Source of the DNA: Obrimoposthia wandeli
Taxonomy: Eukaryota
Direction of reading: 5' to 3'
DNA length: 64,000 nt
NCBI GenBank assembly: GCA_977020255.1
Contig: CDROCS010001306.1
Location: 310,001-374,000, forward strand
Shown here: positions 10,818 through 19,331 of the stretch, one piece after another
How positions within the stretch are numbered: the stretch's first letter is position 1
Layout: each line of letters starts with the position of its first letter
Notes under the pieces: model-generated
Databases searched by the model: none
What the model was told of the DNA's origin: nothing
What the model saw: the letters and a program-made list of their open reading frames with translations, nothing else
Program-made: the position numbers and the translations under genes

Positions 10818-10850
10818 TGCTTATATACTATACATCTGAAATCTGATTGG
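10818..10850 (-). promoter_or_regulatory. Putative promoter heading the ATPase-to-capsid gene run: CCAATCAGATT plus TAGTATATAAGCA
   Basis: CCAAT at 10850-10846 and TATA 13-mer at 10830-10818, ~30 nt upstream of the ATG at 10789. The motifs match the polB promoter and 51923-51950. Confidence 0.65.
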
Positions 10851-10860
10851 TTAATAAATA

Positions 10861-11010
10861 CACTGACTAATAAAGACACTAAAGACACTGACTAATAAAG
10901 ACACTGACTAATAAAGACACTGACTAATAAAGACACTGACTAATAAAGACACTGACTAATAAAGACACTGACTAATAAAGACACTGATTAATAAAAACAC
11001 TGATTAAAGA
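10861..11010. repeat. 16-bp tandem repeat (CACTGACTAATAAAGA), ~9 units
   Basis: Six perfect consecutive units at 10886-10981, one at 10861 and two degenerate units at 10982-11010. Confidence 0.95.
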
Positions 11011-11026
11011 TAAAGACGAATAAAAT

Positions 11027-11761
11027 TTACACATGATAACGATTAAAAATACGTATTTGATGAAGCATAGCTTCATTAGGAGCAGCAATAGTCCGTTTAG
11101 CTTTAACAAGATTCGAAGCAGCAGTAACACCAATCGAATGAGATAAAAATGCAATAACAATGCAAGCAGCATGTAAACTACCATAATGACCACATACTAA
11201 AATCTTACCACCATTTTCGATAGTTTCTTTAATTATATTATTAGTCTGTTTATAATACTTCATTATTGTTTCTCCTAATTTTGAGTTTACAAAGACAGAA
11301 GTATATTTTAATTCCTTATAAGATATTTTATCCAGTATATATGTATTGATTACATGAGTGAAATTGGAGTTCAAAAGATTAGTTTCATCAAACCCATCTC
11401 TATAATTACCAATATATAATTGATTTACTAAAATCTCACTCATCGCTGTTTTGTTTAACTTTTCTACATTAAGTTGAGTAAATCTAGCACTAAACAAACT
11501 ATCAAAAAGATGGGTCATGTGGTTCATTTCCATACTCGAAGCATGAGCTATTATGGGTTCCATAAAAGCCAAAGCATTTAAAAAATCTATCCGTCTCTTA
11601 TCTTCAATAATTGGATCTATAATAATTTCTTCTTCTGTCGTCACTTCATCAATAGTTTCTTCTCTTCTTATAACTGTTGTTGTTGTTGGTGGTGGTGATG
11701 ATGTTACTGATGATGTTGCTGGCGATGATGTTGCTTCTGGTGCTGAATTGATTTTCTCCAT
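11027..11761 (-). CDS. Dual-specificity phosphatase-fold protein, predicted catalytically dead (pseudophosphatase)
   Basis: SEIL..QLYIGNY...L....FTHVIN, GGKILV..., IVIAFL and V.AKR..AAPN...QI match the DSP fold. The signature HCxxGxSRS reads CGHYGSLHA. The N-terminus is a Ser/Thr/Pro-rich then acidic extension. Confidence 0.85.
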   Translation of the reverse strand: MEKINSAPEATSSPATSSVTSSPPPTTTTVIRREETIDEVTTEEEIIIDPIIEDKRRIDFLNALAFMEPIIAHASSMEMNHMTHLFDSLFSARFTQLNVEKLNKTAMSEILVNQLYIGNYRDGFDETNLLNSNFTHVINTYILDKISYKELKYTSVFVNSKLGETIMKYYKQTNNIIKETIENGGKILVCGHYGSLHAACIVIAFLSHSIGVTAASNLVKAKRTIAAPNEAMLHQIRIFNRYHV

Positions 11762-11794
11762 TTTATCAATTCCGAGTCAATTTAGTCTTATATA

Positions 11795-12038
11795 TTAAAC
11801 AAGGTTAGATTTCATTGGAGCATCAGTTTCATCATATGATTTGATTGGAGTATTATTCAATCTTTCCATTGTACTTAACATCTCATGTAAATGTAGTTGA
11901 TGACGTAACCTAAAGAGTTAAATAAACTACATATAAATATTACTCATGATTATTTTTCCTAATTAAAGCATTGAGAATAACTGAAGCAAGATCTTTTAAT
12001 GCATCCTGAACCTCTTTACATTCAATAATTTCATCCAT
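11795..12038 (-). CDS. Hypothetical 69-aa two-exon protein
   Basis: Exons 12038-11944 and 11909-11795 are joined in phase by a 34-nt GTAATA...CTTTAG intron (MDEIIECKEVQDALKDL...NNHE/LRHQLHLHEML...SNLV*). It is not in the ORF track. Confidence 0.45.
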
Positions 12039-12079
12039 TTTATGATAAAGCAAATCAAATATTGTTTATAACCCATGAA

Positions 12080-12280
12080 AAATCTATTTTTAGACCACAA
12101 CTATTTGCAACATTACAACGTTTGCAACTATTTGCAAGTAATGACATGTGATGTCTTTGTCTCTAAGATAAATCTATTTTTAGACCACATTACAACTTTT
12201 GCAACATTACAACTATTTGCAACTATTTGCAAGTAATGACATGTGATGTCTTTGTCTCTAAGAGAAATCTATTTTTAAAA
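12080..12280. repeat. ~90-95-bp tandem duplication (~2.2 copies) with internal TTTGCAAC sub-repeats
   Basis: AATCTATTTTT recurs at 12081, 12171 and 12266, and GCAAGTAATGACATGTGATGTCTTTGTCTCTAAGA occurs twice. Confidence 0.85.
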
Positions 12281-12805
12281 CTATTTGATTTAGGAAATAA
12301 ATAACACAAGTGTGAAGATCTATATTAAACAAAATACATTCAATCAGATACTCATAGTTTAAAGATTTAACACCGAGTATCATAATCTTCCCGCTAGCAA
12401 AAATGTTCACGCATAGGGGATTGTATTTGACGTATCGAAGTCCTGGGAAGATTTCTGGCTCGTAAACAGCTTCCGATCCCATACTCTTGCTCATCTTGTT
12501 TAGGTTTATTGATGTTTCTAGATTGCTGCTGAGACTGATTGATTAGATTCTTTCGATTTTTATATCAAAAGGAAGACTGCTTTCATCCAGCACTGTTTTA
12601 CAACCCATTATTCTGCATGTCTTTAAATTGTAATTATATATAAATGTAAAAATAAATTACCAGATTTAAAAATGATAATAGTGTAACCTTCACACTTGAG
12701 TCGATACTGATGAGGCTTTGAAGTCCGAAATGGTAAGTGTTGAATGTTACTTACAACCATTCCCTTGTAATTAATATTCACTAATTTGATATTGTGAAGT
12801 AGCAT
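12258..12805 (-). pseudogene. TATA-binding-protein (TBP)-like gene, two exons, with an in-frame TAA
   Basis: Exon 1 has KLVNINY...TIIIFKSG. Exon 2 has CRIMGCKT...ERI*SISLSSNL..SINLNKM...YEPEIFPGLRY...VNIFASGKIMILGVK, i.e. both TBP repeats. The TAA at 12543-12545 is at an expected Gln. The GTAATT donor is at 12660, but the nearest AG gives an out-of-frame join, so the junction is unresolved. Confidence 0.8.
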
Positions 12806-12862
12806 TTCTGATTATTATAAATTATTATTTTTAGATTGCATGTCTTTGTTTAATTGCCTATG

Positions 12863-13213
12863 CTATGTAAATCTAATATTTCTTACTCGTCTAATGATAA
12901 TTGTCTTGCAATATGGACATGTAATAAAACGATCTGAACATTTAATACACGTGTTTAAGTGTCCACATGGTAAAAATGCCACGGAAAACGCATCGCTCAT
13001 GCAAACAACACATTCGGGATTAGGTAAGAGGTACTCCAGATAATTTATACGTTGTTTTGGTTCAGATTTTATTTCTAAAGATTTTAAATCCGTTATATAC
13101 TCATATATAGAATCATATTTGTTACCGAATGTTTTAAATCTATTAACTAAAACGGCTTTGATTCTATCATGGCTATAATCACGTTTCAGCAAAACTATTT
13201 GACGAGTTTCCAT
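12863..13213 (-). CDS. IAP-type RING finger protein preceded by an IAP-like UBA region, with no BIR domain
   Basis: CVVC...FLPCGH..C..C.....CPYC...I is a C3HC4 RING at the extreme C-terminus. The upstream DYSHDRIKAVL..RFKTFGNKYDSIYEYITDL resembles the XIAP/cIAP UBA. ATG at 13213 (the ORF is open to 13297). Confidence 0.8.
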   Translation of the reverse strand: METRQIVLLKRDYSHDRIKAVLVNRFKTFGNKYDSIYEYITDLKSLEIKSEPKQRINYLEYLLPNPECVVCMSDAFSVAFLPCGHLNTCIKCSDRFITCPYCKTIIIRRVRNIRFT

Positions 13214-13393
13214 CTGAGCATCAATTTCATTATTACTAATATGTGAGCCCTTTAAGGATATGACTAATACTAGACGATAAACAAGAATGTTAACCAATTG
13301 AGACTAATCAATTTTCATAAACAAGAATATCGACCAATTAGAATCGAGCTTTAGAGGATAAACAATTGAATATTTCAATTTATAATTGTCAAT

Positions 13394-13783
13394 ATGAATT
13401 TCGAAAAGCTATATCAACCTATGCATACATATTATGGATATGAGATGGACTTTTTGAAGAAAGCTCATAACTATAATTTTATTTTTCCTGTCAACATCGA
13501 GCCGCTTAAATTTGATTTTGAAATATCAAATTTGACTTCTGTGGATAAAGAGAGAATCAATATTCTCTTGACTCAATTCGGAATCAACTATGCGCTTCAG
13601 GAAAACAAATTCGTAATCAAAGGATCAACTGCCACTTTCAAGCATGAGAATGGAACAATATACGAAGCACCTCCTCCTAAGCTAGAATGGATTATCTCAA
13701 TCAGAATTCAAGGATGCAAGATCGGGCCCAGTGGATTGGAAACACCGATATGGAAAATAATTGATGCTGTTAGAGTTGACTAA
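13394..13783 (+). CDS. Hypothetical 129-aa protein, divergently transcribed
   Basis: Intact ATG-to-stop ORF with globular-looking composition and no recognised family. Confidence 0.6.
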   Translation: MNFEKLYQPMHTYYGYEMDFLKKAHNYNFIFPVNIEPLKFDFEISNLTSVDKERINILLTQFGINYALQENKFVIKGSTATFKHENGTIYEAPPPKLEWIISIRIQGCKIGPSGLETPIWKIIDAVRVD

Positions 13784-13850
13784 TACATTTTTGTGTCTTT
13801 ATTTGTATTATTTTATATATATAAACAATAGTGATACTTTAATATTTATT

Positions 13851-14201
13851 ATGAAAATGACTAAAAAACCTACTAAATCATTAAAGACTAAGGTTAAAAA
13901 GACTATGAGTAAAAAGAAAATCATGGAGGGTTTGGGTATTCATATGATGGCAGCAAATCTTTTAGGTAGATGGTTTGGCGGAGTTGATAAAAAAGCTATA
14001 AAGCACAAAAAAAATGTGGATTATTTGAGAGGTATACAAAATCAGAAACGAGTGCAAAAAGGAGATGGTATACAAAAAGGGGATGGTATGCTTGATATTT
14101 TTGTAAAATTAGATAAACTTACAAAAGCATTTGAAAAGGATCCTAGTGCCTATCTTGGTCCAAAACTAAACTTTTTAGCAAACCAACCAAAAACTTTGTA
14201 A
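13851..14201 (+). CDS. Lys-rich core-like protein with adenain-type sites
   Basis: Basic N-terminus with MEGLG, WFGG and two QKGDG motifs. The ATG at 13851 is preferred over the ORF-track start at 13761. Confidence 0.6.
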   Translation: MKMTKKPTKSLKTKVKKTMSKKKIMEGLGIHMMAANLLGRWFGGVDKKAIKHKKNVDYLRGIQNQKRVQKGDGIQKGDGMLDIFVKLDKLTKAFEKDPSAYLGPKLNFLANQPKTL

Positions 14202-14410
14202 TTACATTGCAATATAGATGCAGAGTGTCTTTGTTAGACACTCACGAATAAATATATATATGTATAAGAATAAATGTTACTATTGATTACATAAAGATGC
14301 AAGTATTTGCAATATAGATGCGTGACTGTCTTTGTTAGATAGATGATTTTCAAAGTAATGATTTTCACAATGATTTTCACAATGATTTTAATAAATGTTT
14401 TTATTTCCAG

Positions 14411-15836
14411 GACTGACTTTCGCGAGTGCTTTCAAATCCCTGCTTCGTCCGGCTTCTTCTTCTTCTCCCGTTGTGCGAGTCGAGCTAATACAGGATCCAG
14501 AAATGTACCGACTCTTCCGGTCTGGGATTCGCGGGGGTATGACATTTGTTAATGGACACCGCGTTGACGCCATCAATGGTACAGAACTTTTGTACATTGA
14601 TGTAAATAATTTGTACGGGTGGGCTATGTCCCAGTTTTTACCTTGTGGTAACTTTTCCTGAGTGACTGATCGGTTAGAGTTGGGGAATATTATTTCCAGC
14701 TTAAAATCAGCAGATTTATCCTGTAGTCGTTTCGCTCATTTATTGGAAATAGATTTATCCATTCCCAACGAGCTTCATAATAAATTCGACGATCTTCCCC
14801 TTGCTCCCATTAAACAGCGTCCACCAGGGTGTAAGACTGAAAAATTGTTATTAACGCATTACCCTAAGAAACATTATGTTGTGCATTCTAGATTGCTACA
14901 AATGTACGTTAGACTTGGTGCTAAGGTAGATTTTGTATATAGAGCAATACAGTTTGAACAAACTAATGTTTTTTCAAAATATATTGAGGATAATTCTCTC
15001 AAAAGAGCTGCAGCTACAACAGATTTCGAGCGGGATTACTACAAACTGAAGGTGAATTCTTTATTTGGAAAACTCATTGAGAATCTGATGAAAAGAATTA
15101 ACCTCCGGATTTGTAATACTCCACAGAAGCTGGTTACCTATTGCAGTAAAGCCCACTTTCGTAGGACAATCGAAATCGATACGGACCTTATTGCAGTTTT
15201 ACTGGATAAGGAAAATATTGTTTTGGATCGTCCTAGTTACATGGGCCAGGCAGTATTAGATTTAAGCAAACTTCGTATGTATGAGCTACAATATGAGCAG
15301 TTGGAGAAATATCGAGTTCAATTTAACTGCGACATTAGAATTATAGCGGGTGACACTGATAGCTTTTTCTTAAAGTGTAATAATGTCAATGTTCAAGAAT
15401 CACTGTTACCTGCTATGATTGCTGATGGACTGTTGGATACCTCGAAATTTCCAAAAACCCATCCGCTTTATACGACGCTTAATACAGCGATAGGAAAATT
15501 TAAAGATGAGAGTAAGGGATTATTTAGTTATAGGCAAGGGATTTTCTACGACCAAAATCATATAGCCTAGAGACTACAGAAGGTGAATCTCAGATGAGAG
15601 CGAAAGGTATTAGTCTCCGACAAACGAGTATTAGGCACTCTAATTACTTAGCCGTATATGAGAGTGGCGTTAGCGAGCGTGTACAACAACAACGTATAAG
15701 CTCGCTAAATCATCAAATTTTTACTGTAAGGTTAAGTAAAATTGCCTTAAGTAGTAGTGATGATAAGCGCAAGTGGGTGGAGAAAAACCGTTCAGTCGCC
15801 TATGGTCACTTTTTATACCCGGACGAGGTTGTATAA
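14411..15836 (+). pseudogene. polB: Second copy of the pPolB polymerase-domain exon inside the right TIR
   Basis: Protein sequence matches the left copy, with the splice acceptor TTTCCAG retained (14404-14410). It has the same TGA (14659-14661) and a private 1-bp deletion at 15542-15545. No copy of the large upstream exon is present. Confidence 0.93.
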
Positions 15837-16225
15837 ACTTTTTATATGTGTTGTACATATTTTTATTCTCCTTTGTGATTTTAAGGAATATATGTGTTTG
15901 AAATACTTGTCTTTATTTACATAAATTTGCAGGTTTTTGCAATATAGATGCAGTACGTGACTGTCTTTGTTAGATCGATATAGGAACGTTTAAACATGAT
16001 TATCAAATTATATAATACTTTATTTTATAAGTAGATAGTTTAATTTAATTTAGTTTAAATAAATTTATCAAATTATATAATACTTTATTTTATAAGTAGA
16101 TAATTTAATTTAAATTATATAACACACACACACACTAGATGTATTTTGTTGAAATGGTGTTAATACAGTCTTTAGATAAAAAAGATATATAGATTTAAAG
16201 AATGTTACTAAAAATAGATTATTTT

Positions 16226-16648
16226 TGACCTCACCGTGACCTTAAGTTGTCCTCATGACGTCATGACCTTAAGTTGACCTTAAAGTACATTGACCTTAAC
16301 TTGACTTGACCTCATGAGGTCATGACCTACATATTGTCCTCACCGTGACCTTAAGTTGTCCTCACCGTGACCTTAAGTTGACCTCATGAGGTCATGTCCT
16401 CACCGTGACCTTAATCTGTGCTCAAGGGGGGGGGGGTATGCTCAAAATGTCTTTGTCCTGAAAGACACACATCCCCCTACTTGATGTGTGTCTTTCAGGA
16501 CAAAGACATTTTTCCTGAGCATAGGGGGGGTCATGACCTCATGAGGTCATGACCTAGATTTTTCCCATGACCTCATGAGGTCATGACCTACATCTTGACC
16601 TCACCGTGACCTTAACTTGACCTACATTTTTTGTCCTCAACTTGACCT
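16226..16648. promoter_or_regulatory. Subterminal array of TGACCT/AGGTCA hexamers and palindromes
   Basis: By eye, ~19 TGACCT plus 4 AGGTCA in ~425 bp. AGGTCATGACCT is at 16317, 16544 and 16578, a 26-bp perfect palindrome at 16529-16554, and TGACGTCA at 16256. Function is inferred, not shown. Confidence 0.7.
16437..16523. repeat. Perfect 30-bp hairpin with 9-nt loop, flanked by G-runs
   Basis: 16444-16473 is the exact reverse complement of 16483-16512. An outer stem TATGCTCA/TGAGCATA is present, with G11 at 16426-16436 and G7 at 16524-16530. Confidence 0.95.
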
Positions 16649-19331
16649 TAAAAATTTTGTCCTCAGGAGGGGGGGCTTTGTGCCAGAAGTGCTACATCTA
16701 CCTACTCACCTAGACGGATACAGCAAGCAGTGGCGAGGAAGACGAAAAGGGCTGGGAAGTCTACCACCAATATGCTCACATCTGCCGAGGTGGTGAATGA
16801 AACGACAGGAGATTTTCCCATCTCTAATGGTCGACGGGCCCATATTGTACGAGAGGATCCCAGTCTCTCCGATTGAATTTAGTCTTCTTCCCAGCCGACG
16901 TCGCCTTCAAGAGACCTCATTTACGCTCCCTATAGTTCAGCAGCCATCGAGCCTCAGTCAAAACTAGGCGAGAGCTTGAGAGGCTGCGTCTTCTCTTCCT
17001 ATGGCATTATTAAGCCAGAATTTGAAGATGGCCTAACTCGATGCTGGGTTGCATGAGCTCCTGGCAGTACTGGAGACTCCATAACAACCGGTCGTGTATC
17101 TAGTTTCAAATAGGCAAGAGGATACGGTGGCATGTAGGCTGGAGCGTGAAAGAAGGAAAATTAAGAAAGCTCCATGGAAGAGGAAGGCTTCAATACCATC
17201 ACCTTCGTCTGGACCATCTACATCGGCTGCACCGCCTCCACGTTGCAGGAACTCCTGCCAAAACCGCCAGAGACGGCAATTGATGCACAACAACCAGCAG
17301 TTGTACAGCCGAATAAGAAGGAGCCAGTACCGCTCCCGCCAATACCACTACGTCGGAAGTATATATATTTTATACTTTAATTTTATGATAAAAATATTTT
17401 TTAAATATGCATTTAAAAAAATTATTTAATAGTAGATAATTGATTTTTCTTTTAATAAACAATATTTATTAAAAAAATTTAAGTCTTTTTCATATTTTTT
17501 AAAATTAATTTATAATGAAGACATAAATTTTAGTTATAATGCTTGTAACTTAAAGATGCTTTCTTAATTAATTTAACTACATTAATTAGTTATTGATTTA
17601 ATAAAGTGTACCAGAGATATAAAATTGTTAGTTAAATAGAATATATTCTTTTATAGGAAGTAATTGGATTAAAAAAATCTCAAATTTATATAAATATGTT
17701 CAACTTTATTTATCACTTCATTATTAAAAAAAGGAATTTACTCAAATGAAGAAGCTTGTGACAACGATAGAGGAGAATGTCCGAAAGGATACAAAGACAG
17801 GTGGAGATTCAGTAGAGGAGACAAACTGAACGAAGAAGGCGGAATTGGAGAAACGACAATTGGCCGAAAAAAAGAAAGGTGGATATGGAAAATAAACATC
17901 GAGCTGAGAGAAAAAATATCCTTCAAATTCAAACAGAAAAAGGGCCTTCTGGAATTTTTTTTATAAAAATATTTTTTTGATTTTATTTATTTGTTACAAT
18001 TATTTTTATTAAATAAATATTTGAAATAACCAAACAAAATATAAACAATTTTATATATGAGGATTCCATAAGATGAATGATGAGTTTTTTTGAATAACTT
18101 ATACATTAAATTGTCTCCTGACTTAGTGGAAGATTACGTTATTTTTTTCAATAAACGACACTCCAGAAAGTGTTGCAAATAAAATTACCAATTTACTTTC
18201 AAACTATTTAGGTAGAATTACATTTCATATAATATTCTTAGGATAATTAAAAATATATAACAATATTAACGAGAAAAAATTAATTGCGATCCTGCACGCG
18301 TTAGTCCTCAGGTGGCCCCTCAGGTATTTTCTCACTCTGTGAGTGCACTATGATATTTTCAGTTTTAAGGGGTCTTAAATGGAGTTAATTTGTATTTTAT
18401 GGTTGTGGGGCGCAGAGTTGTAAAAAACACTTATACATTACTTTATGTAATTCATAAAGTCCTATATAATGATTTAGTGGCTGTAGTATGGACAAATTGG
18501 GGAATTTCAGAAACTATACGGTAAGCCATAAGTCGTAGGGACGTGCTCAAAATCGCGTTTGATGAAATTCAAGTATCCTATGCGCTTAATCTTCGAATTT
18601 CAGTTCGCCACCTTGACCACTGTACCATCCACCGCCTAAAAAACTGCACTTGTACATTTGAAAAGTGTATATATGCCTGAGGACATATTTAGATTTCAAT
18701 CTCACTCCAAACACATGCACGAAATTTCACTCAACACACATGCACGGTTTTAAAGGACAGTGGTACCCCATGGGAAAGAGGCGGTGGATTAGACCAGACA
18801 TATTCACCTACTAATGTTTAAATGTTATTTAATCATATACACTTATTTTGATTTTGACTTGTTTTTGTAGTCCCAAGTCTATTTCAGTATGTAGAATTTG
18901 ATGACATAATAAGGGTTAAGGAGACAGCATTTGTCTACATGTACCGAAATGAATGGCATCTTTTGTGATAGTCAAGAAAACTCTGACGCACAAACATTGC
19001 AAATCTTTGAGGGCCATGTACAAAACAACTTTTAATATAACTTAAATTTTGTACTGACAATTGATGTATCAATTACAGGGTTGTTTAATTAATAACTTAC
19101 AAATGTTCATTTTAGAAACATTGAATTTTACAATAAAACAAAGGTAGGTACTGAGTCGTGTATTAATTTATATACAGTTTTCTATAAGCATACTTATTAT
19201 AGAAGATACAAAATTTGAAGTACATGAGTATCGATATTTGTTTTGTGTGCTTCATCACTTCTTTTTTTTCAGCTCAGCAACTTAATTATTTTAATGGGTT
19301 ATTTACATTTTGATATTGTTAGCCGATACCG

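Follow-up and report, generated by a model that had tools for sequence, protein, structure and literature searches.

The window examined here, a 64,000-nucleotide stretch of the Obrimoposthia wandeli genome, begins inside a Maverick/Polinton element. The gene of interest in this element encodes a DSP-family protein in which the catalytic residues have been replaced. The features of the element and of this gene are as follows; related copies elsewhere in the genome fall into subfamilies A to D.

1..16706, no strand: Maverick/Polinton element of 16,938 bp, with its left end 232 bases before the window (G000:C1306:309769) and ends AGTAGG
2081..4516, minus strand: N-terminal frame of protein-primed PolB, with further pieces at 1636-1902 and 460-1395
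8271..9299, minus strand: rve integrase with chromodomain (Pfam)
10267..10467, minus strand: N-terminal piece of the packaging ATPase, interrupted here (Pox_A32 match in an open subfamily B copy)
10852..11007, no strand: 16-nt tandem repeat, 10.2 copies, just 3' of the DSP gene and before the next ORF
11027..11761, minus strand: DSP-family pseudophosphatase ORF (P0001), 244 aa (Pfam and PDB sequence matches)
11042..11446, minus strand: DSP domain, residues 106-240 (dN/dS 0.24-0.35 between subfamilies)
11168..11197, minus strand: degenerate P-loop VCGHYGSLHA, residues 189-198, with the proximal half fixed and the distal half variable and without Arg
11267..11293, minus strand: D-loop without the general-acid Asp, residues 157-165 (2 residues shorter in subfamilies B and C)
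11393..11419, minus strand: first strand and the loop after it, residues 115-123, near-invariant in protein sequence across subfamilies
11447..11596, minus strand: N-terminal extension, residues 56-105, common to all subfamilies (dN/dS 0.42-0.66)
11597..11761, minus strand: Thr/Ser/Pro-rich and then acidic N-terminal arm, residues 1-55, of variable length in subfamily A
12258..12805, minus strand: TBP-like gene (two short frames), which in subfamilies A-D lies next to the DSP gene on its upstream side
12863..13213, minus strand: BIR-less C-terminal fragment of an IAP with a RING (C3HC4_3), missing from some copies
14275..16706, no strand: right terminal inverted repeat, ~2.3-2.4 kb, mirror of 1-2022 plus upstream bases

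Terminal inverted repeats, a 6-bp target-site duplication (CACCTA on both sides), protein-primed PolB, an rve integrase and a packaging ATPase identify the element as a Maverick/Polinton, which bears out the context suggested by an earlier reading of the sequence alone (the sequence-only reading). The Maverick also has an adenovirus pX-like (PX) match. In the window copy the PolB, ATPase and putative major-capsid frames are interrupted. The capsid proteins and the cysteine protease gave no Pfam match in the window, where no protease ORF was recognised; the ORFs at 5658-6887 and 7246-8274 are presumably capsid-like. Further ORFs on the plus strand (13394-13783 and 13764-14201) and on the minus strand (10511-10789, 6887-7249 and 4703-5212) have no Pfam match and are conserved in other copies and families. 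The terminal inverted repeats, in which the PolB 3' end recurs in inverted form, are unusually long and near-identical, and another subfamily A copy (L269/L270) has shorter ones. At 16444-16512 in the terminal repeat, perfect 30-nt hairpin arms lie 9 nt apart amid GC-rich short repeats. A 95-nt duplication is found at 12080-12277, upstream of the DSP gene.

The Pfam DSPc model (PF00782) matches residues 115-240 of the window protein with an E-value of 1.3e-12 and 48.1 bits (cut-off 33.5), the match covering positions 1-131 of the 133 in the model; the subfamily B and C proteins score 40.1 and 46.1 bits. A search of PDB sequences returned DUSP19 (E 5e-10) and DUSP22 (E 2e-8) as the best matches, and the 55 sequences matched at E<=1 include these two as well as DUSP15, STYX and DUSP10. 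The language-model features of the protein also match DSPc best, at 0.93. The window protein is a member of the DSP family, with a fold predicted from sequence profiles and language-model features. The DSP domain that the sequence-only reading placed at 11027-11761 was recovered in this way, and the fold that it called intact is so by sequence profiles only. The composition of the N-terminal arm was also as it had described, with Thr, Ser and Pro making up 19 of 31 residues and Asp and Glu 10 of the following 24. In-frame indels change the T/S/P arm within subfamily A, and the proteins of B and C have a short arm or none; it is thus subfamily-specific and was rejected as a conserved functional part of the protein. 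The extension at residues 56-105 gave no family match, and all scores were below 0.85 in an atlas search with residues 48-110; it is likely to be helical.

The P-loop of active DSP enzymes, H-C-x-x-G-x-x-R-S/T, and the general-acid Asp have been defined (PMC13577060, in the sections consulted). VCGHYGSLHA departs from this pattern. In both pairwise and multiple alignments V189-C-G-H-Y-G-S-L-H-A198 aligns to V-H-C-x-x-G-x-S-R-S without gaps, placing Gly191 at the position of the catalytic Cys and His197 at that of the phosphate-binding Arg. These are the two substitutions that the sequence-only reading had proposed. Two more were found: the catalytic-loop His is also replaced, with Cys190 at the buried His position by all aligners used, and the general-acid Asp of the D-loop, a loss overlooked by that reading, is present in none of the eight Maverick rows and in all nine other rows of alignment A1. 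The substitutions are shared among copies. Gly191 and His192 are each present in 81 of 81 open frames and Cys190 in 79 of 81. The residue in the Arg column is H, L or T depending on the subfamily, and that in the Ser column before it is L, D or H. There is no Arg at residues 191-199 in any of 72 distinct open frames from subfamilies A, B and C, so CX5R is found in neither register. With the Cys in register, the Arg and the Asp all absent, PTP chemistry cannot run, as is established (PMC13577060).

The gene is abundant in the genome. Degenerate DNA patterns for VCGHYG found 2,780 and 385 coding sites (~3,165), compared with 0 and 2 for reversed-pattern controls. In a protein search of the genome all 150 scored matches were 98-100% identical, and the same loop was present in 30 of the 30 that were examined. 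A motif outside the loop occurs at 2,770 sites, and among 30 of these loci 23 carried VCGHYG, 3 were one residue off, 2 were damaged and 2 did not span the loop; none had HCxxGxxR. Four syntenic subfamilies, all with the gene order TBP-like, DSP, ATPase, were distinguished, and their proteins are 55-75% identical to the window protein. Subfamily A is the window type. Subfamily B is ~60% identical, with a loop ending in IDLS; subfamily C is 55-62% identical, with a loop ending in IHTA and ~140 older copies; and subfamily D is 70-75% identical, with ~135 copies. A related Maverick in the same genome (L241) also has the TBP-like gene, and nothing DSP-like lies between it and the ATPase. The DSP gene is therefore an accessory gain of one lineage, and it is dispensable in the wider Maverick clade.

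Patterns for the canonical V-H-C-x-x-G-x-S-R-S loop, which miss loops with other flanking residues, found 13, 61, 16 and 5,916 sites. Among 59 loci from the three smaller sets, one had Maverick DNA in its flank, with its DSP in an LTR-type frame, and the other 58 proved to be host genes, LTR copies or chance matches. An LTR-type loop is present in all of the 30 best Pfam matches in the genome. A variant pattern and a screen of 272 loci found no further family, although a more distant one could escape them. In contigs from four sequencing runs of one sample and study, which may share their source with the assembly and so are not independent of it, pieces down to ~80% identity to the gene were recovered and none of the 40 variants listed (of 116) fell in the P-loop codons. 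No RNA run was among those listed as containing the gene, which says nothing for or against its expression. The sequence-only reading had allowed that homologues might keep an intact HCxxGxxR and this copy be simply decayed; the loop was intact at none of the 30 outside-motif loci, and the loop Arg was missing throughout the distinct open frames. A single decayed copy was rejected in view of the ~3,165 sites, the four subfamilies and the absence of Arg in 72 of 72.

The dN/dS comparison among homologues that had been suggested reveals purifying selection on the gene. When natural open copies are compared across subfamilies, the NG86 dN/dS is 0.29-0.46 at a dS of 0.54-0.88, with bootstrap upper limits of 0.45-0.57, and the LWL85 values are 0.38-0.47. 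The claim of a pseudophosphatase retained without catalysis is upheld by these values together with the loss of the catalytic residues. The control genes have lower ratios (ATPase 0.07-0.12 and PX 0.13-0.19), that of the DSP gene being 2-4 times higher. Within subfamilies, for copies picked for open frames, dN/dS is 0.30 in A, 0.47 in B and 0.79 in C. The changes are unevenly distributed. Between subfamilies, codons 188-194 have non-synonymous differences in 2% of codon comparisons and synonymous differences in 29%, and the non-synonymous share is 3% at codons 115-123, 84% at codons 195-200 and 37% elsewhere in the domain; the D-loop has 33% plus 23% gaps. Subfamilies B and C were first found through the very motifs that make up the two frozen patches, and only three independent lineages were compared, so the contrast between frozen and variable codons is inflated by ascertainment. 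V189, G194 and G118 are conserved in active DSPs too, and the frozen patches may have been kept for folding alone. The protein is a real, selected pseudophosphatase of the viral or mobile kind, and it is not of the STYX type.

The same genome contains a giant Gypsy-type LTR element (L062-L064, G000:C929:54001-84000) that encodes an intact DSP, and there are 5,916 intact-DSP-motif sites genome-wide. The order of its genes is gag, a mononegavirus-type fusion gene, an IAP (BIR and RING), protease, RT/RNase H/integrase, a DSP frame and RING-H2. In the frame after the integrase an intact DSP comes first and a degenerate one second. The same pair stands directly after the integrase in a second LTR lineage (L236-L243), which is older. 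The Burro elements of planarians are likewise giant Gypsy elements in which env stands between gag and pol and a BIR domain is present (PMC6431247), an arrangement that the LTR element here shares. It differs from them in its intact and degenerate DSPs, since no phosphatase is included in the description in that review, in the sections consulted; a phosphatase in Burro-like LTR elements was not found in the literature searched.

The best match to the Maverick protein is the first DSP of the LTR element, at 68.0 bits; the 150 top-scoring public proteins among 1.84 billion representatives reach at most 64.0. By BLASTP the scores are 81.6 for the LTR DSP and 73.6 for the best public protein. Identity between the Maverick and LTR DSPs is 31-38%, and the DSP of the second LTR lineage is 35% identical to the Maverick protein over 143 aa. 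In the region before the domain, LTR lineage 2 ranks at the top with a score of 32, where none of 92 public proteins exceeds 30, and lineage 1 is outside the top 8. The RING ORF of the Maverick is 46% identical to the LTR IAP over 100 aa, and its match to cIAP1 covers the RING only. A quick tree of 85 rows joined the Maverick and LTR DSPs weakly, with an SH-aLRT of 81. A more careful tree of 38 rows again joins them weakly, at 89/64 and not starred; it includes only 3-4 host DSPs, and the rows left out of it were P0031-P0070, the two second LTR domains, a long row from the host and four public rows that were long or multi-domain. A host DSP as sister of the Maverick protein was kept by the AU test (p-AU 0.126), and another pair was rejected (0.006).

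Outside this genome, no relative was found at E<=1e-3 among 577 candidates from a 5.8-billion sequence set, the 1.84 billion representatives held only generic DSPs at 23-36% identity, pattern matches in viral contigs (66) and metagenome contigs (80) gave no confirmed case, and phages gave none; the libraries searched hold few animal transposon proteins, so this absence of outside relatives is weak evidence. A search with the LTR DSP region gave 10 generic matches at 30-45% identity, and in a weak search with the RING fragment none of 29 candidates scored. Taken on these sequence comparisons, we lean towards the view that the DSP was captured from a Burro-like LTR element of the same genome.

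We propose that the Maverick protein is a non-catalytic, phosphate-independent binding module whose DSP-class partner would probably be a protein of host signalling or stress, and we give this reading a probability of roughly one half. An ancestral Maverick would have acquired a DSP that was still active, with the Burro-like LTR element as its most plausible source, and catalysis would have been lost before the subfamilies split. By the DSP topology the proximal P-loop would be adjacent to the loop that follows the first strand, both of them at the rim of the former active site. Selection may have held these two segments constant as a binding surface, with drift in the phosphate-binding half of the loop, and the pseudophosphatase would then compete with or sequester its partner during replication of the element. 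Because the gene has been kept by selection despite the loss of its catalytic residues, a binding decoy or adaptor is more likely than an enzyme, and the selective retention of the core, the proximal loop and the first-strand loop favours phosphate-independent binding. Viral PTP-fold proteins that act without catalysis provide precedents (PMC12912956 and PMC3320614, as far as consulted).

The explanation that comes nearest to this in probability is a structural or assembly role, in which the protein would be a component of the virion or replication complex. It fits the position of the gene, which in all four subfamilies immediately precedes the ATPase, PX, integrase and putative capsid genes on the same strand, and it has a parallel in the PTP of the baculovirus BmNPV, a structural protein of the virion with no need for catalysis (PMC3320614, in the parts consulted). 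We consider it unlikely, since the related Maverick L241 has no DSP at that position, the DSP gene evolves faster than the core genes, and no relative was found in the other Mavericks or viral contigs searched. A conflict between elements, in which the dead DSP and the BIR-less IAP are dominant-negative copies acting against the active DSP and IAP of the LTR element, would explain why both accessory genes match the domains of that element best and why both lack their business end (the catalytic triad and the BIR), and the LTR family, with its thousands of intact-motif sites, is very abundant. The low identity to the LTR DSP (no more than 38%) and the absence of the RING gene from some copies make such a conflict rather improbable, and common capture from host genes would also explain the likeness. 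About equally doubtful is a broader form, in which the Maverick took both phosphatase and IAP from the giant retrotransposon of the same genome and, with the active parts stripped, these were selected as dominant-negative decoys against the signalling and anti-apoptotic proteins of the rival element or the host. If true, it would amount to pseudoenzyme warfare between two transposon classes.

The remaining explanations keep some function in the old pocket or none in the protein at all. A STYX-like trap that binds phosphorylated MAPK or STAT there would be consistent with the Gly that STYX likewise has at the catalytic position and with the retention of Gly194 and the proximal loop, and a His or the conserved Arg121 might supply positive charge. 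The freely varying Arg column (H, L or T, next to a Ser column of L, D or H) makes a phosphate trap unlikely, and the Asp in the subfamily B loop would be expected to repel phosphate; additionally, the Asp loop is lost, STYX is only 13th of the 55 PDB matches, and no KIM-like docking motif was found in subfamilies A and B. This last result gives no support to the MAPK/STAT target put forward by the sequence-only reading, although STYX itself has no docking domain, and we hold such a trap to be improbable. Different chemistry, with the fixed Cys190-Gly-His192 as a shifted nucleophile or a metal or redox site, seems more improbable still. Cys190 could be the original nucleophile after a deletion of the His and a later insertion in the loop, and the near-complete conservation of Cys190 and His192 stands among neighbouring codons that vary synonymously; however, no subfamily has an Arg six residues past Cys190 or a general acid, and every aligner used gave an ungapped alignment with Cys190 at the buried His position. 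A neutral relic, that is, a decayed phosphatase carried along by a prolific element, would agree with the several broken core genes of the window element and with the dN/dS of 0.79 in old subfamily C. The open frame has nonetheless been kept across a dS of 0.54-0.88 with dN/dS limits below 0.6, and decay inside subfamily C is the post-integration pattern of inserted copies, so that a relic is very improbable. The binding module described above is the reading that we carry forward.

Among known proteins, STYX, which binds ERK, has a Gly for the catalytic Cys and becomes active again through a single substitution; in MK-STYX the Arg is retained, as FSX5R (PMC8622459, in the parts consulted). The Maverick protein is like both in having a DSP domain with the catalytic Cys replaced (by Gly in STYX), and STYX and MK-STYX function by binding (PMC8622459). 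It differs in that His, Cys, Arg and Asp have all changed and in being encoded by a mobile element. The label STYX-like, given by the sequence-only reading, holds for the Gly and fails for the rest of the active site, where the His, Arg and Asp are gone; with the Gly alone shared, membership in STYX was rejected. STYX (2r0b) also ranks below DUSP19, DUSP22 and DUSP15 among the PDB matches and is mid-table in a second comparison, and these rankings show no sign of orthology. The bracovirus protein CvBV_22-9 is likewise a virus-derived member of the PTP superfamily, proposed to bind Rad9A without dephosphorylation, but it belongs to the classical PTP family of a domesticated wasp virus and its substitutions are in other motifs (PMC12912956, in the parts consulted). 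BmNPV PTP (PMC3320614) and poxvirus VH1 (PMC13577060) are captured DSP-fold genes of DNA viruses, and the N-terminal dimerisation helix of VH1 is a possible parallel to residues 56-105 of the Maverick protein (PMC13577060); in contrast to the Maverick protein both keep an intact HCX5R in the portions of these sources consulted, and no specific sequence link to it was found. Nematode Mavericks carry WASP proteases and KRMA kinases, which are also accessory cargo of a signalling type but keep their catalytic residues (bioRxiv 10.1101/2022.07.12.499685, in the sections consulted). The word 'phosphatase' is absent from the consulted sections of that preprint and of PMC8502044 and PMC8097293. No DSP encoded by a Maverick or LTR element was found in the titles and abstracts searched, which do not extend to subscription journals or Repbase, and the sequence-only reading likewise knew of no such protein described in a Maverick.

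These results provide a clean natural example of a pseudoenzyme that arose and became fixed within a mobile element, and its thousands of copies in four subfamilies show which surfaces selection kept after catalysis was lost. A pseudoenzyme of the phosphatase family is a new class of cargo for Mavericks and suggests that these elements carry host-directed effectors like other DNA viruses. The likely active counterpart in the same genome makes a comparison of enzyme and pseudoenzyme directly testable, and the relationship between the two suggests that genes have passed from a giant retrotransposon of class I to a virus-like element of class II.
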